Under the pieces are notes generated by a model, which saw only the letters and a program-made list of their open reading frames with translations, was not told the origin of the DNA and did not search any database. Position numbers and translations under genes: made by a program. This document shows positions 43,768 through 63,335 of a DNA stretch of 64,000 nucleotides, in pieces. The stretch is from assembly GCA_044892525.1 (NCBI GenBank), contig CM097885.1, forward strand, positions 9,612,001-9,676,000. The letters run 5' to 3'. The DNA comes from Schmidtea polychroa. Its lineage: Eukaryota. The stretch's first letter is position 1. Every line of letters starts with the position of its first letter.

Positions 43768-44564
43768 TAAAAGAAAATAATCAATAATATTAGATAGAGA
43801 ATAAAAAATTATTCACTTATATAAGTTAAATTAAAAGTTTAAATGACAAACATTTGAAAAGTTACTGCTTATATATTACACATGATTAAATTCTGACCAA
43901 TCAAAATGAAGGAAGGGGTAGGAAAAATAAATATATATATATTCTGACCAATCAAAATCAAGGAAGGGGTAGGAAAAATAAATGCATTACGTTGCAGTAT
44001 TTTAAAACTTCAATATATTTTAAAACACATTTTGATGCTAAAGTTGACTTATTTAACATTTTTCATAATAATTTAATAAAAAATAATGTGATGAACCCAC
44101 AAAGTAATATCATTTTTCATCAAATTGCAAAACAGTAATAACGTTTTCATAAAATTGTAACAAAGTAATAACATATTTCAGATAAATTTTCAACAGTTGT
44201 AAAATATTTAAGCAAATTGTAACAAGATTAGAAAATATTACAATAAAGTAGTAACATATTTCAGAGAATTTCATCAAAGTTGTAAAATATTTATCAAATT
44301 GTAACTAAAATAATAAAAATATTGCAACAAAGTAATAAAATAATGATGTTAAATGGGACAAATCAATACATTATTTCGAAGACCGACAACAAATTAAAAA
44401 GAATATTGTAATAAATTGTGAAGTCTTTCAGTAAATTACAACGAAGTAATAACATATTTCAGAAATATTTCACCAGATGTAAAATATTTAAGCAAATTGT
44501 TTTAAGATTATAAAAATAGTGCAACAAAGTAATAAAATAATACAAAATTTTAAACTCTAGATCA

Positions 44565-45410
44565 ATCCATTTTATAGAAAATTAAATTTTATCTCTATAA
44601 TATATGAATAAATATACAAGGAAATTACGTTAACTGTATGAAAAATACAAATTTATCGTAAAAACATGTGTGTATTACACACAACATACGAGACATAATT
44701 TCTAATCAAACTATTTTATAGAAAATTAAATTTTCTCTATATAATATATGAATAAATATCCAAGGAAATTACGTTAACTGTATGAAAAATACAAATTTAT
44801 CGTAAAAACATGTGTGTATTACACACAAAACAAGATACATAATTTCTAATCAATCCATTTTATAGAAAATTAAATTTTATCTATATAATATATGAATAAA
44901 TATCCAAGGAAATTACGTTAACGTATAATAAATACAAATTTATCATAAAAACATGTGTGTGTATTACACACAAAACAAGATACATAATTTCTAATCAATC
45001 CATTTTATAGAAAATTAAATTTTATCTATATATTATATGAATAAAATCCTAAGAAAATTACGTTAACTATATGAAAAATACAAATTTATCGTAAAAACAT
45101 GTGTGTGTATTACACACAACATACGAGACATAATTTCTAATCAAACTATTTTATAGAAAATTAAATTTTATCTATATAATATATGAATAAATATCCAAGG
45201 AAATTACGTTAACGTATAATAAATACAAATTTATCATAAAAACATGTGTGTATTACACACAACATACGAGACATAATTTTTAATCAAGCTATTTTATAGA
45301 AAATTAAATTTTATCTATATAATATATGAATAAAATCCTAAGAAAATTACGTTAACTATATGAAAAATACAAATTTATCGTAAAAACATGTGTGTATTAC
45401 ACACAAAGCG
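44565..45410 (+). repeat. ~120-bp tandem repeat, about 7 copies
   Basis: Unit ttttatagaaaattaaatttta...gaaattacgttaac...catgtgtgtattacacaca. Confidence 0.9.
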
Positions 45411-45605
45411 ACAAACTAAAGTTTTAATTGAGCCATTTTGTAGAGAATTAAATTCTGCCTATACATAGTTACACTTAAATCCCAATTGAACAAAGAGAAA
45501 AGAGAGAGAAAAAACAGTAGAGTAGGGTATCGTGTGGACCCGGGTGAAACCTTTGCATAGATCTCTTCAAGACTTTTCGAATGATGTGAATAAAATATAA
45601 TTAAA

Positions 45606-46036
45606 TTTAAAATACCGCAACGTAATATATTTAATAATTAAAATATAATAAATTTTAAAATACCGCAACGTAATATAAATTTTAAAATACCGCAACGTAA
45701 TATATTTTTAAAATACCACAACGTAATATATTTTTTAAAATACCGCAACGTAATATATACGTCATATGTCTTTGTAGTAGGGTATTGTGTGGACCCGGGA
45801 ACAAAGACATATGACGTCATCGATGAAGTCACAAACACGTATTTTTTTTTAATTTTTTAAAAATTTTTTTTTAAAATTTTTTTTTTAAAATTTTTTTTTC
45901 AAATTTATATTACGTTGCGGTATTTTAAAAATATATTACGTTGCGGTATTTTAAAAATATATTACGTTGCGGTATTTTAAAAATATATTACGTTGCGGTA
46001 TTTTAAAATTTATATTACGTTGCGGTATTTTAAAAT
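45606..46036. repeat. ~26-bp repeats in two inverted blocks
   Basis: aaaataccgcaacgtaatata (45606-45757) and its reverse complement (45903-46036). Confidence 0.9.
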
Positions 46037-46054
46037 TTATTATATTTTAATTAT

Positions 46055-47085
46055 TATATAGATAAAATTTAATTTTCTATAAAATAGTTTGATTAGAAAT
46101 TATGTATCTTGTTTTGTGTGTAATACACACATGTTTTTACGATAAATTTGTATTTTTCATACAGTTAACGTAATTTTCTTAGGATTTTATTCATATATTA
46201 TATAGATGAAATTTAATTTTCTATAAAATAGTTTGATTAGAAATTATGTCTCGTATGTTGTGTGTAATACACACACATGTTTTTACGATAAATTTGTATT
46301 TTTCATATAGTTAACGTAATTTTCTTAGGAATTTATTCATATAATATATAGATAAAATTTAATTTTCTATAAAATAGCTTGATTAAAAATTATGTCTCGT
46401 ATGTTGTGTGTAATTCACACATGTTTTTACGATATATTTGTATTTTTCATACAGTTAACGTAATTTTCTTAGGATTTTATTCATATAATATATAGATAAA
46501 ATTTAATTTTCTATAAAATAGTTAGATTAGAAATTATGTCACGTATGTTGTGTGTAATACACACATGTTTTTACGATATATTTGTATTTTTCATACAGTT
46601 AACGTAATTTTCTTAGGATTTTATTCATATAATATATAGATAAAATTTAATTTTCTATAAAATGGATTGATTAGAAATTATGTATCTTGTTTTGTGTGTA
46701 ATACACACACATGTTTTTATGATAAATTTGTATTTATTATACGTTAACGTAATTTCCTTGGATATTTATTCATATATTATATAGATAAAATTTAATTTTC
46801 TATAAAATAGCTTGATTAAAAATTATGTCTCGTATGTTGTGTGTAATACACACATGTTTTTACGATAAATTTGTATTTTTCATACAGTTAACGTAATTTT
46901 CTTAGGATTTTATTCATATAATATATAGATAAAATTTAATTTTCTATAAAATAGTTAGATTAGAAATTATGTCTCGTATGTTGTGTGTAATACACACACA
47001 TGTTTTTTACGATAAATTTGTATTTTTCATATAGTTAACGTAATTTTCTTAGGATTTTATTCATATAATATATAGATAAAATTTA
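46055..47085 (-). repeat. Same ~120-bp tandem repeat in inverted orientation, about 8 copies
   Basis: Reverse complement of the 44565-45410 unit. Confidence 0.9.
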
Positions 47086-48180
47086 TTTTTCCTACCCCTT
47101 CCTTCATTTTGATTGGTCAGAATTTAATCATGTGTAATATATAAGCAGTAACTTTTCAAATGTTTGTCATTTAAACTTTTAATTAAACTTATATAAGTGA
47201 ATAATTTTTTATTCTCTATCTAATATTATTGATTATTTTCTTTTAGTGAACGGATGCAGTTTATATAAATTTTGTATTGCCGAAAGTCATGAAGATGTGG
47301 AGAACTGTAAATCAGTTACATCTTCATATTTCAAGATAAATGACTCTACCTTATCGGGTTACATATGTCCGGAATGTCTCATTATATCACCAGGTAGGTG
47401 GTTAATGTTTGTACGACAACACGGACACCATCTTAGAAGATTCGAAGAAACGAAGAGCAGGATGATCACTAAAAGTAATACTCTTTCTACTATTAACAAT
47501 TATTAATTTTTTATAGTACAATCGAAAATGAACACATCATACGATCCTAAGCAGATTAAAGAATATGTTACAAGTTATGTTATTTAAGTTGTTTAATATT
47601 AATTATAAATATAGTTAGACAAAACTCTGGCACCACAAAACGAAAGTCAATATTTTACGGAAATGGAGACTCTAACAAACAATTGTGTCCACGTCGGGAG
47701 TCTGACTTAAATGGTTCTCGTGTTGAATTGACAAGCGATGTATCTGCAATTAATTCTCCTGACATTGTTGTTCCAGATTGTCTCATCAAAGAAATAGAAG
47801 ATCATATTCAACGAATGGGGACAGTAAAAATCCAATTTGGACTTTGCGCAGAGTTTATCAAAGAGGATGGTGAAATTAAAAAATGGTGTTTGTCGAATAA
47901 AGCAATTACAATGTCATCTTCATTTATTAATGATGGAATTGAAAAATTAAAAGAAAAGTTGGAGAAATACACTCAACAAAGTAGTGGGTGGAGAATTCAT
48001 AAAATATTAGAAGTTACTATGATTTTAACTAAATTATCAGACATAATACATGTATCTGGTAAGTTTATTTACATTATTATATATATAAATCAAGATATTT
48101 ACTTAGGTTCAAGTTACATTAAAACGCCAAATTACCTGAAAAACTGTCAGGCTTTAGTTAATGTTCAAAATAATGATCAA
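47081..48180 (+). pseudogene. polB: Inverted duplicate of the 5' part of the second-family pPolB, truncated
   Basis: Near-identical reverse complement of 42833-43932. Confidence 0.9.
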
Positions 48181-48640
48181 CGATGCCTAATATTTTTAGA
48201 ATGATGCCTAATATTTTTAGAACGATTACATCATACTTTTAGAATGGTGCCTCTTATTTTTAGAATGATTACGTCATAATTTTAGAACGATGCCTAATAT
48301 TTTTAGAATGATGCGTAATATTTTTAGAACGATGCCTAATATTTTTAGAACGATGACTCATATTTTTAGAACTAATATTTTTAGAACGATGCCTAATATT
48401 TTTAGAATGATTACGTCATATTTTTAGAACGATGCCTAATATTTTTAGAATGATTACGTCATACTTTTAGAACGATGCCTAATATTTTTAGAACGATGAC
48501 TCATACAATGACTCATCACATTTTAAGAACGATGACTCATACGATGACTCATCATATTTTTAGAACTAATATTTTTAGAACGATGCCACATATTTTAGAA
48601 CTATTACGTAATCGAAGCCTAATATTTTTAGAACTAATAA
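48181..48640. repeat. ~21-bp minisatellite containing TGACTCA / TTACGTCA variants
   Basis: tttttagaacgatgcctaata units. Confidence 0.85.
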
Positions 48641-50494: not shown

Positions 50495-51073
50495 TTATAT
50501 TTGTTCATTCGCGAATTCATAATAATCATAATAATCACACATAATCATTTTATTTTCATATACATGTTTATATCTACATCGAGCTGCTTCCATTTGTGCA
50601 CGACATACTTGAGATCGATAATCAGGGATCATAGCAGTCATAACACCTCCAGTACTTTCAGTAATATTAAACAATCTCGTAGCGGAACTCTTCTCAATCA
50701 TTTTATTTGGAACCTGTCTTTGTGTAGCTACACATAAATTTGATCTCATATTATTCCTTTCTGAACACAAAACAATATCGATTCGGCCATTTTGATCTTG
50801 AGCACATTTCAACAAATTTGTTTGATCCATATTCAATTCACCAGGTACAGATTGAACTAATTGTCGGTCTCGAGATAATGTGATTAGAGAGAATCCATTA
50901 TCCAGAACTTTAAGAGATTTGCTAGATCTGATAACATCGTCTTTACAAATAGTTTCTATTTCCATTTTGCTGCGGGTTCTATTCAACCTTGCCATTAAAT
51001 CATCGAGATCCATCAATTCCCCGTTATATTTAGATTCATAATTTGTAACTTTGTTACTTTCCATAAATTCCAA
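50495..51073 (-). CDS. LTR-borne chimeric SNF8/PSMA6 fragment ORF (3' LTR copy)
   Basis: [38 protein letters not shown] resembles SNF8; [34 protein letters not shown] resembles PSMA6. Confidence 0.75.
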   Translation of the reverse strand: MEFMESNKVTNYESKYNGELMDLDDLMARLNRTRSKMEIETICKDDVIRSSKSLKVLDNGFSLITLSRDRQLVQSVPGELNMDQTNLLKCAQDQNGRIDIVLCSERNNMRSNLCVATQRQVPNKMIEKSSATRLFNITESTGGVMTAMIPDYRSQVCRAQMEAARCRYKHVYENKMIMCDYYDYYEFANEQI

Positions 51074-51358
51074 CCAAAATCGAAGAGAACTCCTTCAACA
51101 AACTTCAATTCAACCTTAAATCCATTCGAAATCGATAAATCTAAAAACTCAAAATTACAACTAAATAACCACAAATTCAAATACCTCTTGCTCGCGTCTG
51201 TGTGTGCACACAGCCAAAAACAAAGAAAAGAAAAGCGCACACAGACGCGAGGATCGGATTAAAAATTTCCACTTTCTCCATTTTACGCGTCTGTGTGCGC
51301 ACACAACCAACACAAAGAAAAAAGCGCACACAGACGCGAAACAACTAATAATTCACCA
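50502..51358 (-). repeat. 3' LTR
   Basis: Direct repeat of 54415-55271; one mismatch seen (tgttcattc vs tgttcaatc). Confidence 0.97.
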
Positions 51359-51372
51359 TCCTCCCCCCCCTT
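51359..51372 (-). promoter_or_regulatory. Polypurine tract
   Basis: AAGGGGGGGGAGGA immediately before the 3' LTR on the minus strand. Confidence 0.9.
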
Positions 51373-51545
51373 GACACCTTAGTGTCAATCTCAAATCCCC
51401 ATCAGCTTCTCCTTCTTCTTTTATACTCAAACATACTTTGAAGATACATTCCCGTGTCAGTTTATTCCTTTTCCCCTTCATTTCTTGCACTTCCCTCGCC
51501 ATTTTATCCCTTTTCCCTTTCATTTTCTGCATTTCCCTCACCATT

Positions 51546-54500
51546 TCATCCCTTTCCCCCTTCATTTCCTGCATTATGGCTCAATCTCCAATAACCCTCA
51601 CAAACCCATCTTTGTATTATATAAGCCGCCGCGCCACGCACCTTTTTTGAAAGATCGTTGTGGATTCTCCATCCACCAACGCCATACTCGGCCAAGCAGC
51701 TGTCCATGTTCAGTTTGTTTAGGTGTAATCTCTCCATTATTATTTCTCCATTTTTCGCCAATTCCATATTCCACACTTTTTCCTGTTGCATTTCATTTTG
51801 TGACCAGTTTTCACTTAATGTTTTTACAAGCATCCTACCAAGTGGTTCTTTGATTGCTTCGTGTTTCGATTCCCCAATCGACACCTTGTCTTTCATGTGC
51901 ATCTTTAGAGGCGGGCAAGCGAGTTCCAGTGATCCTTGTTGTTTGAAACTGTTCGATGATTCGTTCAATTTTTCCAAAACTTCCTTGGCCCCTTGATCAT
52001 TATCACGTACAGTTTTCCATGATTTCCCATATACCATACTGGTCTCCTTGTTTTGCCTCTCCCCTCTGGAGTCTTCTGCCCCTTTTACATTATCACGTTC
52101 TTCTTTTAATCGATTAACTTCCCCTTCGTCGACCTGCATATCATTAACCGCCGCCTCGGGCGTTAACTCCTCTGATTCTGGTTTGTCTTTTTCCCAATTA
52201 CTCATCACTTCCGTTGTCTTCGGTTCCACAATTTTATCGTCGGATAATTTTATGATCTCACCAGCCCGGCAAGCCTCATCTTGCTTTTTCCCTGTATTCA
52301 TTTTTCCTTGAACATTTTGTGTCATTGTCATAACGTTAAATAATTCGTTAGTTCTTCCAGAATTGAATATTTGCCCATCTAAATGACTCTGAGCTCCTTG
52401 CTCTTCATTAGATGCCTTACTCCTGTCGAGTGGCGTGTCCTCCATTCCTCGAGATGCGCGTAACTCGTCATTGAACATTTCAGTTACCGCAAAATAACTC
52501 TGACCCGTCCTCATTGATGCGTTTTCATTTAGTAATTCGTTGTGTCTCTGCTTACATCCGGTAACCTTGCAGAAAGATTCTTTACGACATTCCTTGGCCA
52601 TGTGATTTCTTTTGAAGCAATTCCTGCACAGTTTCTTTTCTTCGATGACTCTCTTCCTTTCTGAAATTGTGAGTTGCTTAAACTTGTCACATTGGTCTAG
52701 GTAATGTTGACCACCACATTGTACACACTCTGATCTATAGCCGTTAGAGTTATTCACCTGTATAACCGTTCCACTTTTAACTCTGCCATCTGGTTGCCCC
52801 GTAAAATGCGTCCAACCTCCTGGATTGAAGCTTTCTCTGTCTCTAGACACACCTTCTACTCTTGACACATCATAAGCCCTGGTGCATGGTTGAGTCCCAT
52901 ACACAACCTCGTTAGTGGACCTTAGGATCTCCGCTTCTTGTTGTATCCATCTTCTCAAATCCTCTATCGTCTCCCGCAATTCCTTTTCTATTTTCTCTTT
53001 CTTCCATTTATACACAAGATCCGTTGTTAACTTGCCCAAACACTTTTGAAAAAGATATCCAGTCTTTAACTCGGATTCTTTCCCAGTGGATTTAAATCGC
53101 ACGGTGACTGTTTCTAATAATCCAACAAATAAGTCTAGATCCTTCAAATCTCCTTCTCGAATTGGCCTGAACTGGTCCATCTCCTCAAACATTGATAAAT
53201 ATATCCTTTCATCCCCACCATATCGCCTATCCAACTTCTCTTTTGCCATTTGATAAGCCTCTGCTGAATATCCAAGATTTTCAATTAACTTTAATGGCTC
53301 TCCGTGAAGGTACTGGTGCAGGTGAAACATCTTTTCAACCTCATCACCTTCCGCTTCGTCAACACACGCCGTAAAAGCTGCTTTCCATGGTTCGTACTCT
53401 TTCATCTTGCCTTCAAAGACCGGTATTGTAATTTTCTGTAGACTTTCCAGTTTTCTTTTATGCCCGGAATTATTCTTCTTGATGGTATCATCATTCCCCT
53501 TTTCCTTCTTTTCCATAAAAGATTGATTTGCTTTTCTTTCCATCAATGCCCCAATTATTTGATGTTTTTCCTCGATCTCCTGCAGGTCTTTATCTAAGAT
53601 TGCAGTGATGTCCAATCTATGCAATTTTTCACTGATCGTTCTTAGATCTCTTAATTCTTCATCTAGACTCTCCTTTATATCTTCATATTCCTCCAACCAT
53701 TTGCTAACATCCTTACCCTTTATATCATTCAGAATCTTGTTTCTCCATCTCGTTAATTTTCCTTTTTTCATTCTCTTTTTCCACATTTCTTCTTCTAAAA
53801 TCTCTTCGTCATTGCCACCGCACAGCCTAAGTGACAAATGAAGTGTCGACCCTACTTGTATCCTATAATCATTCAATCTTCTTTTATTTTCTAACTGCTT
53901 TCCTGCGTATACTAACGTTTGATAATTTTCCGGAATTCCTTCTTTGTCCTGGATTTTTCCTTTTATCTTTTCAATTGTGTCGTTCCATTTAACGTCCAGA
54001 GTAATTGTCTTACCAGTAAGAGTCTTGACAAATATTTGATTTATACTTCCCCATCGCAACTCAAAACCCATTACCCCGCTCGCCCTCACCCTTGACTCAG
54101 ATCTGTTCTTTACCCTGTTCCCCTGGCTTCCCCCTTTAAAAGAGTGCTGGGGCCCATAGCAGCACTTTCCCACGCTCGGTAGGGAAGGGAGGATGTTTAA
54201 TTTTACAAAAGTATTATAATATATACATAATATGCATGAACAAGATTTTTTATAATACATATTAATTACCAAAATATTATTAATTACAAAGATATTATTA
54301 AACACATAATAAACATAATATTTACATAAGATATATAAACCCAAAAAAGACAGTTTATAATACATTTTAATTACCTTGTTCCGGCTGGCTAGCCGGAACC
54401 ACGCTCTGCTACCATGTTCAATCGCGAATTCATAATAATCATAATAATCACACATAATCATTTTATTTTCATATACATGTTTATATCTACATCGAGCTGC

Positions 54501-54986
54501 TTCCATTTGTGCACGACATACTTGAGATCGATAATCAGGGATCATAGCAGTCATAACACCTCCAGTACTTTCAGTAATATTAAACAATCTCGTAGCGGAA
54601 CTCTTCTCAATCATTTTATTTGGAACCTGTCTTTGTGTAGCTACACATAAATTTGATCTCATATTATTCCTTTCTGAACACAAAACAATATCGATTCGGC
54701 CATTTTGATCTTGAGCACATTTCAACAAATTTGTTTGATCCATATTCAATTCACCAGGTACAGATTGAACTAATTGTCGGTCTCGAGATAATGTGATTAG
54801 AGAGAATCCATTATCCAGAACTTTAAGAGATTTGCTAGATCTGATAACATCGTCTTTACAAATAGTTTCTATTTCCATTTTGCTGCGGGTTCTATTCAAC
54901 CTTGCCATTAAATCATCGAGATCCATCAATTCCCCGTTATATTTAGATTCATAATTTGTAACTTTGTTACTTTCCATAAATTCCAA
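51546..54986 (-). CDS. gag: SNF8-fragment / PSMA6-fragment / ubiquitin / BEL Gag open frame (shorter Ub-Gag product from ATG 54071)
   Basis: Ubiquitin 53814-54041; [49 protein letters not shown] and [10 protein letters not shown] knuckles. Confidence 0.85.
54397..54414 (-). promoter_or_regulatory. Primer binding site for initiator tRNA-Met
   Basis: TGGTAGCAGAGCGTGGTT directly after the 5' LTR; complementary to the tRNAi-Met 3' end ...CUCUGCUACCA. Confidence 0.9.
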
Positions 54987-55271
54987 CCAAAATCGAAGAG
55001 AACTCCTTCAACAAACTTCAATTCAACCTTAAATCCATTCGAAATCGATAAATCTAAAAACTCAAAATTACAACTAAATAACCACAAATTCAAATACCTC
55101 TTGCTCGCGTCTGTGTGTGCACACAGCCAAAAACAAAGAAAAGAAAAGCGCACACAGACGCGAGGATCGGATTAAAAATTTCCACTTTCTCCATTTTACG
55201 CGTCTGTGTGCGCACACAACCAACACAAAGAAAAAAGCGCACACAGACGCGAAACAACTAATAATTCACCA
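54415..55271 (-). repeat. 5' LTR
   Basis: Direct repeat of 50502-51358; followed by the PBS on the minus strand. Confidence 0.97.
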
Positions 55272-58200
55272 ATATTTAATTTACAAATTTTTCTCGCTCT
55301 TCTGCTGGTAATCTATCTCAAAATTATCATCTCCATCAGGCCATTTGGAATACATCTTGCAAATTGGACGTATTTCTTAGTTTCTGATGCGGTGTCAACT
55401 ATCATTGCTAAAATTTAAAAGCCATTAACTTACAGATGTTATTTATCATTTTATCGTCAGAAATTAAATTCTACCTGACTATTAGGCAACTGTTATTTGT
55501 GGTATACTTTTTCAATGACATTTCCCACCATAAAACACAGATACCTAAATATAATATATTTATTTTAAAGAATTATTTCATGTCTTACATTATTAATAAT
55601 ATTCTTCAGGTGTAACGAATATTTTACAATATCTAATTGTTAAAACATCGGTTTTCCCATTTTTCTTGACATTCGTTGAAAGAAAGTTTACATAATTTAA
55701 GTCTGATAAGTAAACATACATGTTGAAGGACACCTACAATCAGCTAATTCATTTAAAAAATCCAGAACATAACTCCTTTAGTGTTTCACCATTTTGTCTG
55801 GTTCATCTTCTTCATAATCATATAATTCATGTTTTAATAAGAAATCTCTAAATCCAGAACATAAGTCTTTTAGTGTTTCACCATTTTGTCTGACTCATCT
55901 TCATAATCATATAATTCATTTTCTTCATTACTAAGTAAAATAATTAAAATATTGTAGTAAATTCTTTATTTACTTACTTTATGGATACTAAAACGAAAGA
56001 AATAAAGTTATATCATAATTATATTTAATTAATTTAAATTTAAATAATTTAAATTTAGTATTTAAACATATTTAAACAATTTAGTTATTTAAGCATATTT
56101 AAACATTATTATATAGTATTTATAAAATATTATAATATTATAATTTTATGTATTCTAAATTTATTAATAAATACAGTATAATTTTATATAATATTATAAT
56201 ATTATGTACACTTATATATCCTTCATTTAATTTTTTAAATTCAAAAATTTATAATGAAGATTTTTTGAATTAAAAAATATTCTGTTAGTATTTCCATGCA
56301 GAAAACAACGAATTCAATAATTAAAATCTTAATTTTCATGTTGTTAGGGTTGTGGCCAGAAGTTAATCGCCATCTAATCGTTTGTTCTCAATTTCGCTCA
56401 TTTTTGTTCAAAACATTCAGGAGAGTTGTTATCTGGAAAGTTTCTTTTAGCTCAGCTTTCTTTAAACACTCACGGCATTCTTGAAAGATGTGACACTGGA
56501 AATAAATTAACAATGGGTGGTCTTGCATACATGTTGTTGGTTTGAACTGTTGATTTATTTTAGAAATATGTATATTAAAAACATTTAAGGTATCATTCAG
56601 TAAAATAATATAGTATTTTTGAGTATTTTTTAGTTGATTTATAAATAACAGTATTTTGATATATCAATAAAGACCATATACTCCTAGTTTATCCGACAAA
56701 ATATTCTGTCCCCCTATGGGTATTGCTAGCAAGGGTACTGGTCACATTCAACATGTCGCAAAGGTATATTAATCATTTAGAAATTCTTAGGTAATTTAGT
56801 GAGATGATCAGAAATTCGTGAATATTTTAAATGTAACTTTACACTTATGTCGAGCGACTAATTTATTGGTTAACTTTGTAGTCATTTAAAGCAAAAATTA
56901 ATTTATTCATCTAATGTTCGTTACAATAGTTAATAATATGAGAAAACATGGTCATTATTCATTGATAATTTTAAATTCTTTATCATTTGGAGTAAATTTG
57001 TTTGAGGCAAAAATAATTAAAGGAGTCATAATAGAAATATGGTTATCATTTATCCAATTAAGGGGCTTATTAGTTAGAAATATATATTAAAAAGTAACAA
57101 TTATTTTCTAATTTAATTAGATGATCATTAGACGTAATATATCTTTGCGAGAAATTTAAGATGTTTGAGTAACCAAAACATGGATATTTTGTACGATAAA
57201 TTTATGAATATTGGTTAATTTAGTCATTAAAATAATAATATAATAAGGTAATTTAGGAAAATATCATTTATCCATCCGATAACAATATTCCTTCAATAGA
57301 TATTCAACCGATTTAATTTCTAATTAAAATCATAAATTTCCTTCAAAGATCATTTTTCTTTAGTTGTTTTCCAATTCTTTTAAGTTAATATTTCTCAAGC
57401 TTTGTCAACGATATCCCCAAAATGAATAAAATAACTTCTTAAATAAAAATAATTTAAAGCAATAACCATTGATATCAATTAATTCTAAAGATTTCAAATT
57501 TCTCATTGTCAAAAACAAGTAAATTGATCATTAACCATTAATAAAACCGTGGATAATTAATTAAAACTGGTTCTGAAACATAAATTACTGTGCAACCTCT
57601 AAAACGATATAATTTCACAGGAACTATTCACAGCTGACTATTTCCCTTCAAAATTTGATATTTTACCAATAAGAATATATAAATATTCAAAACATTAACC
57701 GATCCCTCACCAAATATTTCTAGCATTTTAAAAACCCCCTTAAAAATCATATATTACCATCTTAACCTTCACTAAATCCAACCGAATATAATTTCACCCA
57801 CTTGAGCCCTTTAATATATCTTAAAATCCATAGAAATTCTTCAAAATATGAATTTTATTTAATTGTTACAAACATTCTTCCATTGAAATAATTTAGTAGC
57901 TAAATTCAAAGACCTCAGTAAAAGATCAAAATTCGCTAAAATGAATATTTCCTACAAATATTTCACCACATTCACCATCAAATATCTAATTAGAGATGAA
58001 ATATATTGATAGATCATCGATTCGGCTAATTATAGCCATTATAAAATGATATATCTTTCAAATTAAATCACAAATTTCAGTATATTTTACATTAATTTTC
58101 AAGTAGATTTCAAATATATCATCATCATGATAAAATTAGTTGGTTTCAACTTTAGATTTTCAATATTTTAAAGTATCATCAATGTGTAAATATTCTTAGA

Positions 58201-60094: not shown

Positions 60095-61380
60095 AGTGAG
60101 GGGGTCTCGATGGTCCTGGGATTTTCAATACAAAAAAATTTTTTCAATACAAAAACGATGGTCTTGGGATTTTCAATACAAATAAAATTGTTTCAATACA
60201 AAAATCCGACTACCACTAAAAAAGCATGGAATTTTCACACTATAGTGAGGGGGGTCTCGATGGTCCTGGGATTTTCAATACAAATAAAATTTTTTCAATA
60301 CAAAAATCCGACTACCACTAAAAAAGCATGGAATTTTCACACTATAGTGAGGGGGGTCTCGATGGTCCTGGGATTTTCAATACAAAAAATTCTTTTCTAT
60401 ACAAAAATCCGACTACCACTAAAAAAGCATGGAATTTTCACACTATAGTGAGGAGAGTCTCCTTGGTCCTGAGAAATAGGTGGTCTACACTAAAAAAGCC
60501 AAAGATTTTTCAGACTATAGTGAGGTGAGTCTCCTTGGTCCTGAGAAAAAGGTGGTCTACACTAAAAAACGTGGTAATTTAAGGTCTCAGGATATTTTCA
60601 ATACAAAAATCCGACTACCACTAAAAAAGCATGGTAATTTAAGGTCTCAAGATATTTTCAATACAAAAAGCTGGTCTACACTAAAAAAGCATAGAATTTT
60701 TCAGACTATAGTGAGGTGGGTCTCCTTGGTCCTGAGAAATAGGTGGTCTACACTAAAAAACGTGGTAATTTAAGGTCTCAGGATATTTTCAATACAAAAA
60801 TCCGACTACCACTAAAAAAGCATGGTAATTTAAGGTCTCAGGATATTTTCAATACAAAAAGCTGGTCTACACTAAAAAAGCATAGAATTTTTCAGACTAT
60901 AGTGAGGTGGGTCTCCTTGGTCCTGAGAAATAGGTGGTCTACACTAAAAAACGTGGTAATTTAAGGTCTCAGGATATTTTCAATACAAAAATCTGACTAC
61001 CACTAAAAAAGCATGGAATTTTCACACTATAGTGAGGGGGTCTCGATGGTCCTGGGATTTTCAATACAAAAAATTTTTTTCTATACAAAAATCCTACTAT
61101 CAATAAAAAAGCCAAGGATTTATCACGCTATAGTGAGGAGAGTCTCCTTGGTCCTGAGAAATAGGTGGTCTACACTAAAAAACGTGGTAATTTAAGGTCT
61201 CGGGATATTTTCAATAACAAAAGCTGGTCTACACTAAAAAAGCATGGTAATTTAAGGTCTCAGGATATTTTCAATACAAAAAGCTGGTCTACACTAAAAA
61301 AGCCAAGGATTTTTTCAGACTATAGTGAGGTGGGTCTCCTTGGTCCTGAGAAAAAGGTGTTCTACACTAAAAACGTGGTA
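60095..61380 (+). repeat. Complex higher-order tandem repeat (modular ~25-60 bp blocks, ~220-bp superunit)
   Basis: Recurrent actaaaaaagcatgg, ttttcaatacaaaaa, ctatagtgagg and ggtcctgagaaa blocks. Confidence 0.9.
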
Positions 61381-61384
61381 AATT

Positions 61385-62010
61385 TTTCAATTAAAGTAAA
61401 TAATGGTCCAAATTTTAAAATTAAAGTAAATTATGGTTCTAAAAATTAAATTAAAGTAAATTATGGCTCAAATTTTTAAATTACAGTAAATTATGATCCA
61501 AAAAATTAAATTAAAGTAAATAATGGTTCTAAAAATTGAATTAAAGTAAATTATGGTTCTAAAAAATTAAATTACAGTAAATTATGGTTCTAAAAATTGA
61601 ATTAAAGTAAATTATGGTTCTAAAAATTAAATTACAGTAAATTATGGCTCAAATTTTTGAATTACAGTAAATTATGGGTCTAAAAAATTAAATTACAGTA
61701 AATAATGGTCCAAATTTTTAAATTAAAGTAAATTATGGTCTAAATAAGTAAATTATGGTTCTAAAAAATTAAATTACAGTAAATTATGGTTCTAAAATAT
61801 TAAATTACAGTAAATTATGGCTCAAATTTTTGAATTACAGTAATTAATGGTTCTTAAAAATTAAATTAAAGTAAATAATGGTTCTAAAAATTTAAATTAC
61901 AGTAAATTATGGTCTAAAAATTAAATTAAAGTAAATTATGGCTCAAATTTTAAAATTAAAGTAAATTTAGGTTCTAAAAATTAAATTAAAGTTAATTAAG
62001 GTCCAAATTT
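61385..62010 (+). repeat. ~30-bp minisatellite
   Basis: aaattaaagtaaattatggttctaaaaatt units. Confidence 0.9.
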
Positions 62011-62334
62011 TTAAATTAAGTAATCAATGGTAAAAAATTTTAAATAAGTAAATTAAAGTAATAATTTTTAAATTAAGTAATCAATGGTAAAAAATTTTAA
62101 ATAAGTAAATTAAAGTAAGATTTTAAAATTTATTAACAAAAAGTTGAAGGTGTTTGAGAATTGAAATTTTTTAATGAAAATTTTTATGGAATAATTTTTT
62201 AAGTAATTTTTAATGGAAATTTTTATGAAATATTTTTCAATGATAATTTTAGATGGAAATTTTTAAGATAATTTTTAATGAAAATTTTTATGAAATATTT
62301 TTCAAAGACAAATTTTAATAATAATTCAACAACA

Positions 62335-63335
62335 AACCAACAACCAGTAACTTATGAACATGTATTAACAACCAGATACCTACAACTAGTTACTAACAAC
62401 CAGTTACCTGATACCAGATACCTACAACTAGATACCTACAACTAGTTACCTGATACCAACTACTAACAACCACCTACCCATTAACTAGCTACAACCAGCT
62501 AACAACTAGCTACCACCTACCAAGTACATACAACCAACATCAAACAGGTACTAAGCATTATTAACCAACTACCAAGTACTTACAACAAGTTACTAACAAC
62601 CAGTTACCTGATACCAAGTACCTACAACTAGATACCACGTACTAAATAACTCTCAAACAACCAAGTACCTACAACTAATTACCAAATACCAAGTACTATC
62701 AACCAGCTAACAACTAGCTACCAAGTACTCACAACCAGATAACAACTAACAACCAGATACCAAGTACTTACAACTAGTTACTAACAACTAGCTACCAACT
62801 ACTAAGTACTAACAACCAACATCAACCAGGTACTAAGCATTATCAACCAAGTACTAACAACTAGATACCTAGTTACTAACAACCCGCTAACAACCAACAA
62901 CTAGATACCAAGTACCAGTAAATTACGAACATGTATTAACAACCAGATACCTACAACTAGTTACTAACAACTAGTTACCTGATAGCAACCAACTAGCTAC
63001 CAACTACTAAGTACCTACAACCAACATCAACCAGGTACTAAGCATTAATTACCAACTACTAAGTACCTACAACCAACTAACAACCACCTACCAAGTACTA
63101 AGCATTATCAACCAACTACTAAGTACCTACAACCAACTAGCTACCACCTACCAAGTACTAACAACCAGTTACCAACTACTAAGCATTAATTACCTACAAC
63201 TAGTTACTAACAACTAGCTACCAAGTACATACAACCAGACACTAAACATTATCAACCAAGTACTAACAACCAAGTAACTTGCCTAGTACTAAGCACTGTC
63301 AACTAGATACCAAACACTTACAACCAGATGACCAC
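62335..63335 (+). repeat. A/C-rich shuffled short-motif repeat
   Basis: accaagtact, acaactag and aacaacc modules. Confidence 0.85.

Follow-up and report, generated by a model that had tools for sequence, protein, structure and literature searches.

A ubiquitin domain ending in Gly-Gly adjoins Gag in a BEL/Pao retrotransposon lineage of Schmidtea polychroa and may be a site of cleavage by host deubiquitinases

In the usual view, retroviruses and LTR retrotransposons mature Gag and Gag-Pol with an aspartic protease of their own, and Gag translation begins at a dedicated AUG, the leader before it being non-coding. In the cellular polyubiquitin, ubiquitin-L40 and ubiquitin-S27a precursors it is deubiquitinases that release the partner protein, and linear fusions of the form Ub-GG-X, where X is not proline, are generally cut fast in eukaryotic cells. 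Integrated ubiquitin-like domains that are not cleaved typically miss the C-terminal GG at the domain border. In cytopathogenic pestiviruses (BVDV), host ubiquitin sequence is gained by recombination with host RNA, directly 5′ of the protein to be released, and the available text credits the cut to cellular ubiquitin C-terminal hydrolases, with one complete monomer needed (PMC5381556); host ubiquitin insertions in pestiviruses are also the subject of PMC8310069 and PMC13517609, going by the accessible portions of both.

Among mobile elements, 2A-like ribosome-skipping peptides are described in non-LTR retrotransposons, towards the N-terminus of their ORFs (PMC3708506, PMC3894237, in the parts available). 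The locus described here resembles them in that a mobile element carries, early in its main ORF, a module that would separate proteins, but this is a functional analogy only: sequence and mechanism are unrelated, 2A acting by co-translational skipping at NPG/P, the element class is different, and of the 2A motif D(V/I)ExNPGP, NPGP was not found in the 1143-aa window ORF. The planarian and cnidarian BEL/Pao 'Flow' superfamily belongs to the element class studied here, sharing the DUF1759 domain in Gag, the 'Peptidase_A17' signature, RT and integrase; the comparison is by domain content, and the accessible text of that survey mentions neither a ubiquitin domain nor coding LTRs (PMC3118150). The word ubiquitin has 0 occurrences in that text and in PMC13524379, and the portion available of PMC6431247 speaks of ubiquitination only for the MATH/TRAF motifs of Burro elements. 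A literature search outside subscription journals and Repbase reports found no paper on a retrotransposon ubiquitin-Gag fusion.

The window analysed here is a 64,000-nucleotide stretch of Schmidtea polychroa DNA (GCA_044892525.1, contig CM097885.1). It holds a 4,770-bp LTR insertion with Gag as its only product, and this insertion is very young, its LTRs differing by 1 mismatch in 857 bp. Its features, in the order in which the element is read, are the following.

55272..55276 (upstream copy) and 50497-50501 (second copy), minus strand: target-site duplication AATAT, by sequence inspection.
54415..55271, minus strand: 5′ LTR, 857 bp, TG...CA, starting TGGTGAATT and ending ...TGAACA, 99.883% identical to 50502-51358.
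54468..54950, minus strand: in-frame host-gene fragments in the LTR (Pfam), EAP30/Vps36-like at 54648-54950 and proteasome-subunit-like at 54468-54647.
54399..54414, minus strand: primer-binding site (PBS) TGGTAGCAGAGCGTGG, directly 3′ of the 5′ LTR, translating in frame within ..HGSRAW.., the same peptide in families A and B.
54072..54398, minus strand: leader from the PBS to ATG 54071, AT-rich, with the Ub-Gag frame stop-free by frame scan.
54042..54071, minus strand: ATG 54071 and 9 further codons 5′ of ubiquitin, with a G at both -3 and +4.
53814..54041, minus strand: ubiquitin, 76 codons, tail LRLCGG, Gly-Gly codons at 53814-53819 (Pfam, PDB matches, host alignment, AlphaFold2).
52530..53813, minus strand: Gag, with N-terminal helices, DUF1759 at 52995-53417 and CCHC-type knuckles at 52530-52727 (Pfam, AlphaFold2, sequence).
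51549..52529, minus strand: 327-aa acidic tail in place of the PR-RT-IN of autonomous copies, by comparison with other non-autonomous copies; stop codon at 51546-51548.
51359..51372, minus strand: polypurine tract AAGGGGGGGGAGGA, directly 5′ of the 3′ LTR, by sequence inspection.
50502..51358, minus strand: 3′ LTR, by alignment to the 5′ LTR.

The hallmarks of a BEL/Pao LTR element are thus present, from the TG..CA ends, target-site duplication, PBS and polypurine tract to a Gag with CCHC knuckles and the BEL/Pao Gag domain DUF1759, which Pfam matches at residues 219-359 of the 841-aa ORF (E 7.8e-13). As Pfam finds no Pol domain (protease, RT, 'Peptidase_A17' or integrase) in the window copy, it is a non-autonomous, gag-only deletion derivative. 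No Pfam family matched the acidic 327-aa tail, and the same tail with its C-terminal motif was found in other non-autonomous copies of the window element's own family (family A) and of a sister family (family B).

A preliminary description, made from the sequence alone, had placed a 76-codon ubiquitin with intact GG in frame 5′ of Gag and 10 codons past ATG 54071, and this is confirmed: the minus-strand frame from that ATG runs through 10 codons, ubiquitin (54041-53814) and BEL/Pao Gag to a first stop at 51546. In the 841-aa ORF, PF00240 matches residues 13-83 over profile positions 1-71 of 72 (Pfam, E 5.2e-23; score 81 bits, cut-off 25.4), and the best 60 of 344 solved-structure matches in PDB are ubiquitin throughout, at ~101 bits per single unit; the match and the junction lie far beyond chance. 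An origin from NEDD8 or another ubiquitin-like protein was rejected, NEDD8 being absent among those best 60. Compared with the host polyubiquitin unit, read from locus L040, 53 of 76 residues are identical, and the residues listed earlier hold good: K6, K11, K27, K29, K33, K48, L8 and H68 are retained, and K63V, I44V, V70S and R74C are changed. Six of the seven lysines thus remain, the tail reads LRLCGG for the canonical LRLRGG, and the L8-I44-V70 patch carries two substitutions, which by sequence makes this a diverged ubiquitin, distinct from the canonical protein. The AlphaFold2 model has a beta-grasp of strands and helix at residues 11-83 (pLDDT 82-90) and a further helix from residue 88, and residues 84-86 (CGG), with pLDDT below 50, are modelled as a flexible linker joining the two folded parts.

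Like the cellular ubiquitin precursors, the window copy has a complete ubiquitin monomer whose Gly75-Gly76 is joined straight to the next protein, and the next residue is N and not proline, so that Gag would begin NDEE. Unlike them, it has an altered tail and changes at I44, V70 and K63, and where the cellular precursors start at Met1 of ubiquitin, the frame here extends upstream into the leader and the LTR. Position 1 of the family-A ubiquitin is N, S or Y, with no Met1 of its own.

The domain is not unique to the window copy but recurs in copies numbering in the hundreds. A search of the own genome gave 836 candidates; the 150 matches that were scored all have E <= 5.7e-42, and 146 of them are stop-free. 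GG is retained by 59 of the 62 ubiquitin segments of family A. Since most copies are very young, the fact that many are identical means little in itself. Ub-Gag is also present in all five autonomous copies that have their 5′ part in view (8 fetched of 221 Peptidase_A17 candidates), and a comparator without ubiquitin was not found among these five.

The youth of most copies, together with the demonstrable pick-up of host sequences by the family, could suggest that the ubiquitin is a neutral passenger, a piece of a host gene captured like those in the LTR and carried along by a family that expanded recently. Neutral evolution of the domain is, however, not borne out. When 14 diverged copies of family A were compared in 91 pairs, the median dN/dS of ubiquitin was 0.34 and that of Gag 0.38. 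Six divergent pairs show a synonymous share of 0.45-0.54 where 0.21-0.22 is expected (p 4e-4 to 1e-2 by one-sided binomial test; the pairs are not independent). The LTR ORF with its host fragments gives 0.50-0.76 in nine pairs and a value of 2.55 in a tenth, with significance reached in no pair, and the LTR-encoded part appears to evolve nearly neutrally. Since ubiquitin positions 2-14 as well as 66-74 are invariant among the 14 copies, purifying selection on the ubiquitin appears to cover the whole fold, beyond the tail.

In family B, a tandem di-ubiquitin precedes Gag, Ub1 followed by Ub2, with Ub2 adjoining Gag. Ub1 is near-canonical (71 of 76 residues identical to host) and lacks its own Met (..PIRGGLARVFVKT); Ub2 carries I44N, R72G and R74A; and GG is kept in 16 of 18 Ub2 and 14 of 18 Ub1 units. 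At the nucleotide level, identity to the host polyubiquitin repeat is 95.6% for Ub1, 96% for nt 1-105 of Ub2 and 67% for nt 106-228 of Ub2. The fresh stretch corresponds to most of one host repeat and continues over the first 105 nt of the following one, at 96-100% DNA identity; the family-B ubiquitin has thus been partly refreshed, in register, from the host polyubiquitin gene. The window's family-A ubiquitin, at 70% identity to the host, is an older or diverged acquisition. Family B thus resembles BVDV in its uptake of host ubiquitin sequence. The pestivirus inserts occur sporadically, in variants of an RNA virus; in the present case an LTR-retrotransposon lineage has the fusion as a fixed trait and has retained it while its Gags diverged deeply. 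The family-A ubiquitin has itself diverged, and cleavage is in this case a prediction.

The divergence of Gag became visible in an exhaustive HMMER search with Gag against 1.84 billion representative proteins, which returned 2899 relatives, the best 150 of which were inspected. Six of these 150 have ubiquitin directly 5′ of Gag (P0121, P0122, P0126, P0209, P0221 and the partial P0192), and P0133 starts, by eye, with a remnant of a ubiquitin tail (..KLKGG followed by S). Gag identity of the ubiquitin-carrying relatives from other public assemblies is 28-46%, and P0221 comes from outside the own genome, as its own-genome match is only 38-39%. A junction shared at this distance, the retained GG tail, the synonymous excess and the in-register swap for fresh host ubiquitin in family B all speak against a neutral passenger, and we disfavour this reading as very improbable. 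Ubiquitins of the different lineages are 34-68% identical to one another, and each is nearer to host ubiquitin than to that of any other element; this star-like identity matrix is compatible both with a single old capture and with repeated refreshment. Before the KKSR.K..FTR.KN motif, relatives without ubiquitin have 7-28 residues and the elements here 13-14, and the position of GG coincides with that of the initiator Met in the former.

Across the six element lineages compared, L71, L73, G75 and G76 are kept, except in P0122 (M71, E75), and the tail positions that vary are 72 (R/G/K/N) and 74 (C/A/R/Y/K). The residue following GG is N, S, G or M, and never P. Unlike in typical non-cleaved ubiquitin-like domains, GG at the domain border is retained in six of the seven lineages or units compared. 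This pattern of conservation fits a putative cleavage site.

Alternatively, the altered ubiquitin could stay on Gag, uncleaved or slowly cleaved, as a sorting or budding signal (for example by recruiting ESCRT) or as a signal for degradation or turnover, an option that we consider unlikely. It agrees with the conservation of L8 (I only in P0209) and of a hydrophobic residue 44 in most lineages (I, V or L in five of seven aligned element ubiquitins; N in family-B Ub2, S in P0122), with K48 and K63 not conserved, and in the part available of a study of engineered Gag-ubiquitin fusions, ubiquitin on a Gag lacking late domains drives particle release, for which L8 and I44 are needed and K48 and K63 are not (PMC2958808). 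Those fusions also have ubiquitin in line with Gag, and the hydrophobic patch, important there, is mostly kept here; they were, however, C-terminal and functional with GG deleted, whereas here ubiquitin precedes Gag in a natural fusion and its GG is conserved (PMC2958808, same part, for the engineered fusions). The altered surface and tail (I44V, V70S and R74C here; I44N, R72G and R74A in family-B Ub2) could slow or block many deubiquitinases and make for a poor substrate, and the window LTR carries an ESCRT-II (EAP30/Vps36-like) fragment. On the other hand, that fragment is just one among many unrelated host pieces in the LTRs; Ub2, the unit adjoining Gag in family B, has lost I44; fusions with GG followed by a residue other than proline are generally cut fast; and retention of G75-G76 and L73, the best-conserved positions of the tail beside the variable 72 and 74, would serve no purpose in a tag that is not cleaved.

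Activation of ubiquitin by E1 requires R72 and GG. Family A keeps both, with K63 lost, which would suit a released variant ubiquitin, or a chimera of host fragment, leader and ubiquitin, that targets the ubiquitin system of the host by competing in it, terminating chains or being conjugated as a tag, as is thought for virus-encoded ubiquitins. Such a role would also sit well with purifying selection over the whole fold and not the tail alone, and with the near-canonical Ub1 that family B retains upstream of Ub2. But family-B Ub2, P0121 and P0126 no longer have R72, the ubiquitins of the lineages have diverged in different directions, which suggests no shared effector surface, and the LTR-encoded part of any chimera evolves near-neutrally; we regard such an effector as improbable.

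The preliminary description has the ubiquitin fused to the N-terminus of Gag. The ubiquitin is probably not itself N-terminal, as the frame is open for 312 codons further upstream, via the PBS into the 5′ LTR, where its first ATG lies at 54977. Between PBS and ubiquitin the window copy has 373 nt, with 0 in-frame stops against 14 and 9 in the other frames, and the ubiquitin frame is stop-free in 41 of 52 distinct leaders of this kind. The 41 open leaders come in 16 lengths between 157 and 469 nt, every one of them 1 mod 3, and have 3-20 stops in each other frame; all eight leaders in another phase contain stops. In P0126, too, the open frame includes a PBS-like ..HFGSRAG.., which lies 149 residues before the ubiquitin. 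In the leader peptide no clear transmembrane segment was found, the Kyte-Doolittle 19-residue mean peaking at 1.37.

We also considered the AT-rich leader as an intron (AAG/GTAATT...AG) and rejected this, because phase and openness persist over the 16 length variants. A spliced form lacking ubiquitin, which would have counted against the fusion, was not seen: in contigs whose kind is guessed, and which are thus weak evidence, there is no GT..AG joint over leader or ubiquitin. Two joints with non-intron ends, each in a single contig (54216 to 54369, skipping 152, in X1; 54261 to 54367, skipping 105, in X2), we read as probable copy variants. The X1 contigs span the AT-rich leader, and X3 and X4 leave ~54224-54466 uncovered and end near 54210-54220, which with contigs of guessed kind is no guide to start, splicing or expression; nor is a depth drop near 55076 in X1-X3 a guide to the transcription start. 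Contigs of X1-X4 that match 54467-54644 diverge at both ends and may represent a host transcript, the source of the LTR fragment. The two host fragments in the window LTR were assigned by Pfam (PF04157, E 3.7e-9, aa 10-110; PF00227, E 4.8e-6, aa 111-170), and the host pieces in the LTRs of this group are unrelated to one another (phosphatase, Rab, CCT, eIF4A-like, proteasome, ESCRT-II).

When in-frame and out-of-frame ATGs are scanned, 36 precede ATG 54071 across LTR and leader. ATG 54071 itself has good context and is conserved in family A, and a product of Met, 10 aa, ubiquitin and Gag made via another initiation route is possible; cleavage would then remove ubiquitin only. Ubiquitin raises the yield and solubility of fusion partners, such as its natural ribosomal-protein partners, and the domain could in that manner be a folding or expression helper for the coiled-coil Gag, with or without a role for upstream translation. 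Its place directly at the N-terminus of Gag and its conserved fold are in keeping with this well-known effect. Yet a helper also needs to be cleaved off, and is hence compatible with release by deubiquitinases, and it leaves the preserved upstream frame and the Met-less family-B Ub1 unexplained; as the main function we think it quite unlikely.

We favor, as moderately probable, that the ubiquitin is a selected, built-in part of the BEL/Pao Gag polyprotein and that host deubiquitinases cut after GG, releasing Gag. Judging by the open frames, translation of the full-length RNA would start in the LTR or the leader. Cellular ubiquitin C-terminal hydrolases or USPs would cut the linear fusion as they do polyubiquitin and ubiquitin-ribosomal-protein precursors, and Gag would be released with NDEE... 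as its new N-terminus, detached from the peptide encoded by 5′ LTR and leader. As the cut separates Gag from it, the upstream peptide would be disposable, and thus free to drift and take up pieces of host mRNA while the frame stays open. An Asn N-terminus is destabilising under N-degron rules, and an Asn-initiated capsid protein seems odd for this reading.

It had been proposed that the element lacks a protease and that host enzymes might stand in for it. The first statement holds for the window copy and fails for autonomous relatives in the same genome, which encode Ub-Gag-PR-like-RT-IN in a single frame. One of them, L031, has RVT_1, Peptidase_A17 (E 5e-45), Integrase_H2C2 and DUF5641 by Pfam, and a protease-like stretch with the motif LLDDAS, a weak Asp_protease_2 match and DUF1758 below cut-off (E 1.5e-3). 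That a degenerate protease (LLDDAS for D-S/T-G) created a need for host cleavage was rejected, as relatives without ubiquitin share the LLDDAS or LLDDGS motif. Because autonomous relatives carry this stretch and the frame is open upstream, the likely job of the cut would be to detach Gag from the upstream peptide, and not to replace a missing protease. The protease-like domain of the autonomous relatives and family B could also be an alternative maker of the cut.

We further speculate, and rate as doubtful, that ubiquitin was the enabling invention for 'coding LTRs': with Gag cut free by host deubiquitinases, the region upstream (R-U5, PBS and leader) would need no more than an open frame and would be an exchangeable cassette taking up host mRNA pieces, and the released GG-ended chimeras would be conjugated or act as dominant negatives against the ESCRT, proteasome and phosphatase machinery, that is, as decoys made through a first cut by the host.

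Against the standard view of Gag, the lineage described here is a BEL/Pao lineage with a selected, GG-ended ubiquitin at the N-terminus of Gag and with the leader and part of the LTR open. This ubiquitin-Gag is a natural parallel to the pestivirus ubiquitin inserts and to the 2A modules of non-LTR elements, and its diverged tails, LRLCGG, LGLAGG, LKLRGG and LNLYGG, form a natural series on what deubiquitinases require. If host deubiquitinases make the cut, this would be a natural retroelement that relies on host ubiquitin processing for the maturation of its polyprotein, and to our knowledge no earlier natural retroelement is known to depend on that machinery in this way. The cut would then explain both how Gag is produced from an RNA with dozens of upstream AUGs and why in-frame fragments of host genes are tolerated in the LTRs.

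We find that the reading frame opened by ATG 54071 (minus strand) passes through ten lead-in codons, the ATG among them, into a 76-codon ubiquitin unit (54041-53814, tail LRLCGG), and from there continues in frame and without a break into Gag, up to a stop at 51546 (minus strand). The Pfam ubiquitin profile covers residues 13-83 of this ORF (E 5.2e-23, 81 bits against a cut-off of 25.4) and DUF1759, the BEL/Pao Gag domain, residues 219-359 (E 7.8e-13), while a search of solved structures with the domain returned ubiquitin for every one of the best 60 matches; the in-frame ubiquitin-Gag (Ub-Gag) fusion with an intact diglycine proposed in the preliminary description is thereby confirmed. Its list of retained (K6, K11, K27, K29, K33, K48, L8, H68) and changed residues (K63V, I44V, V70S, R74C) agrees exactly with our alignment to host polyubiquitin read from the same genome, with which the unit shares 53 of 76 residues. 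In an AlphaFold2 model that covers residues 1-360 and was built from an 8-row alignment (mean pLDDT 75.9, pTM 0.32), residues 11-83 form a beta-grasp (pLDDT 82-90), CGG at residues 84-86 has pLDDT <50, and long helices run from residue 88 on, followed by the helical DUF1759 domain; the low pLDDT between the two folded parts places Gly-Gly, in this model, in a short flexible link.

The ORF lies in an LTR element of 4,770 bp on the minus strand with the following features:

54415-55271, minus: 5′ LTR, 857 bp, TG..CA ends
50502-51358, minus: 3′ LTR, 857 bp, TG..CA ends, 1 mismatch to the 5′ LTR
AATAT: target duplication, 5 bp
immediately 3′ of the 5′ LTR, minus: primer-binding site (PBS), TGGTAGCAGAGCGTGG
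immediately 5′ of the 3′ LTR, minus: polypurine tract, AAGGGGGGGGAGGA
51549-52529, minus: acidic tail, 327 residues, in place of protease, RT and integrase
54468-54950, repeated at 50555-51037 in the 3′ LTR, minus: ORF of host-gene pieces, EAP30/Vps36-like (E 3.7e-9) and proteasome-subunit-like (E 4.8e-6)

As its internal region holds only Ub-Gag and the 327-residue acidic tail, and its LTRs differ at one position, this copy is non-autonomous and gag-only, and was inserted very recently. The tail is without a Pfam match; its conserved end is common to non-autonomous copies of this family (family A) and of a sister family (family B). In sequencing run X8, 11 contigs of uncertain kind leave out the element entirely and pass from 50496 to 55272, where 6 letters fit both sides; they may represent an empty-site allele, which would agree with the insertion being very recent. 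The GC content of the window is about 30%, and the LTR is AT-rich apart from two copies of a GC-rich palindrome (..CGCGTCTGTGTGCGC....GTGTGCGCACACAGACGCG..) at 55100-55250 (minus), within its first 190 nt and 5′ of the LTR ORF, which may be promoter or U3 elements. Tandem-repeat blocks flank the region at 44492-47005 and 60156-63265 (periods of ~144-146 bp, 191 bp, 102 bp, 30 bp and 14-21 bp). A 129-aa ORF at 47815-48204 (plus) resembles ORFs that adjoin or are fused to other family copies in this genome (motif ..GWR..ILE...ILTK...SYIKTP...N.KNND..C..; loci L031:8724-9998 and L089:830-5770). At L089 a repeat with such an ORF, then a DNA-polymerase-B-like ORF, runs in frame into LTR, PBS and Ub-Gag; the repeat is probably another mobile element.

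The domain is not unique to this copy. Searching the 781 Mb assembly, which has four contigs of 93-272 Mb, with the 86 codons from ATG to GG gave 150 scored matches among 836 candidates, all at E <= 5.7e-42; 24 of them, the window copy included, are 100% identical, and 146 contain no stop. In a subfamily with a spacer two codons shorter, open frames reach 2,189 codons. At L031 a single frame encodes, in order, an LTR-encoded N-terminal part, the PBS peptide, an AT-rich leader, ubiquitin, DUF1759 Gag, a protease-like stretch (motif LLDDAS; sub-threshold matches to DUF1758, E 1.5e-3, and to Asp_protease_2, E 2.8e-3), RVT_1, 'Peptidase_A17' (E 5e-45, positioned after RT) and Integrase_H2C2 with DUF5641. 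The lack of a protease remarked on earlier thus holds for the window copy as a deletion derivative and does not extend to the family. The protease-like regions of L031 (3540-4500) and of the database proteins P0121-P0270 have LLDDAS or LLDDGS in place of the retropepsin D-S/T-G; a link of this motif to ubiquitin was ruled out, since it occurs in relatives with and without ubiquitin. A Peptidase_A17 search of the genome gave 221 candidates; among the eight examined, all five with the 5′ part in view carry Ub-Gag, and no BEL/Pao comparator lacking ubiquitin was found.

Selection was assessed between individual copies, without a consensus, by the Nei-Gojobori method on the 91 pairs formed by 14 diverged family-A copies. 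Ubiquitin has a median dN/dS of 0.34, and the 330 Gag codons that follow it one of 0.38. In six of the more divergent pairs, synonymous changes make up 0.45-0.54 of all changes in ubiquitin, where 0.21-0.22 would be expected (p 4e-4 to 1e-2 in one-sided binomial tests, which are not independent since the pairs share branches), so that neutral evolution of the domain is not seen. Ubiquitin exceeds Gag about twofold in both dN and dS (mean dS 0.151 vs 0.081), for which recombination homogenising Gag, or exchange among 5′ regions, is one possibility. Ubiquitin positions 2-14 and 66-74 are invariant among the 14 copies, and position 75 varies in one. In a locus sample biased towards best-scoring and chosen diverged copies, LRLCGG is followed by N in 59 of 62 family-A segments (the remainder being CGS, CCG and one with a stop), and GG ends 16 of 18 second (Ub2) and 14 of 18 first (Ub1) ubiquitins of family B.

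Searching the genome with the Pfam ubiquitin profile gave 1,240 candidates, which include host genes and family B (L046-L063). This family is also non-autonomous, and its Gag is preceded by tandem di-ubiquitin (e.g. L047:4047-8093, minus). Ub1 reads ..ARVFVKT...LRLRGG, without a Met of its own, and Ub2 MQIFVKT...LVLGLAGG, then SPVSDAEFEAGYKRR.. Compared with a host polyubiquitin repeat, DNA identity is 95.6% for Ub1 and 96% for Ub2 nt 1-105 (figures up to 100%) and only 67% for Ub2 nt 106-228, which indicates that most of one host repeat, with the beginning of the next, replaced part of an old, diverged element ubiquitin in register. The ubiquitin of the window's family A is 70% identical to host repeats (78% over the first 105 nt, 63% over the remainder), consistent with an acquisition that is older or has diverged further.

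To look beyond this genome, we ran HMMER exhaustively on 1.84 billion representative proteins, using only the Gag part (394 residues) as the query; at E <= 1e-3 this gave 2,899 matches with a top identity of 46%. A local phmmer scan of the best 150 of the 2,899 with host ubiquitin placed the domain immediately ahead of Gag in P0121 (..LKLRGG + G), P0122 (..MRLKEG + N), P0126 (..LNLYGG + S), P0209 and P0221 (both ..LRLRGG + S) and, partially, P0192; P0133 starts, by eye only, with an apparent tail remnant (..KLKGG + S). These Ub-Gag relatives lie on short contigs in ENA and JGI assemblies or, in one case, are known from a UniParc entry, and P0221, at best 38-39% identical to anything in the S. 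polychroa genome studied, is therefore not from it. Together with the selection on ubiquitin, such distant relatives count against the domain being a neutral passenger, which we disfavor. Across element lineages L71, L73, G75 and G76 are kept except in P0122, positions 72 and 74 vary, and GG is followed by N, S, G or M, in no case by P; K48 and K63 are unconserved, and residue 44 is I, V or L save in family-B Ub2 (N) and P0122. Twelve matches reach the Gag N-terminus, seven with ubiquitin or a remnant and five with their own Met, 7-28 residues before a conserved KKSR.K..FTR.KN motif. As the GG of families A and B stands 13-14 residues before this motif, it lies where normal Gag begins.

The preliminary description has ubiquitin fused to the N-terminus of Gag; in the translated product the domain probably takes an internal position. 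In the window, 312 codons without a stop precede it, starting with ATG 54977 in the 5′ LTR, and the LTR ORF of host-gene pieces is in frame with PBS, leader and Ub-Gag. Among 52 distinct leaders between PBS and ubiquitin, 41 are stop-free in the ubiquitin frame; these come in 16 different lengths (157-469 nt), every one of them 1 mod 3, and each has 3-20 stops in each other frame. All eight leaders in another phase contain stops. In family B the PBS peptide is in an open frame with the ubiquitins in 16 of 18 loci, the frame stays open at least 190 codons further into the LTR in 13 of 18, and the LTRs carry in-frame host pieces (by eye dual-specificity phosphatase-, Rab-, CCT-, eIF4A- and proteasome-like). 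The missing Met of Ub1, the 36 ATGs, 14 of them in frame, that precede ATG 54071 in LTR and leader, and P0126, whose frame runs through a PBS-like ..HFGSRAG.. 149 residues upstream of its own ubiquitin, argue in the same direction, and we infer translation from upstream of ATG 54071. For the host-derived LTR ORF, nine pairs have dN/dS of 0.50-0.76 and a tenth, nearly identical pair has 2.55, no pair in this small sample of five copies differing significantly from neutral. In the 3′ LTR copy the ORF crosses the end of the element and meets a stop after 7 nt of flanking DNA.

Polyubiquitin and ubiquitin-ribosomal-protein precursors are processed by host deubiquitinases, with cleavage after Gly76. 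We suggest, at somewhat better than even confidence, that translation of the full-length RNA would begin at an AUG within the LTR or leader, that host deubiquitinases would cut after Gly76, and that Gag would thus be freed with a near-native N-terminus from a disposable upstream peptide. Such a cut would account for the conserved LxLxGG with variable positions 72 and 74, the position of the junction, an upstream frame that is preserved yet nearly neutral, the missing Met of family-B Ub1 and the tolerance of the LTR for host gene pieces. Against it stand the altered patch and tail (I44V, V70S, R74C; in family-B Ub2 I44N, R72G, R74A), the protease-like domain of autonomous copies, the conservation and good context of ATG 54071, and Asn as the new N-terminus, which is destabilising. 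A precedent for the predicted cut is cytopathogenic BVDV, where ubiquitin inserts are processed by the same kind of cleavage (PMC5381556). The main rival, that ubiquitin stays on Gag as an uncleaved tag, we hold to be rather unlikely: ubiquitin fused to Gag can replace a late domain, for which L8 and I44 are needed, but that fusion works without GG (PMC2958808), whereas GG is the best-kept part of the element's tail. Other, less likely rivals are that released ubiquitin acts as an effector, or that ubiquitin serves as a folding helper.

Our literature searches turned up no account of a retrotransposon with ubiquitin fused to Gag, Repbase reports and subscription journals being outside the scope, and the word 'ubiquitin' is absent from a BEL/Pao survey that includes a planarian (PMC3118150). 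In conclusion, the window element is a non-autonomous BEL/Pao member carrying a diverged true ubiquitin as an added, selected module. Rather than a new category, it would combine known kinds, namely an LTR retrotransposon and the predicted processing of a polyprotein mediated by host ubiquitin.
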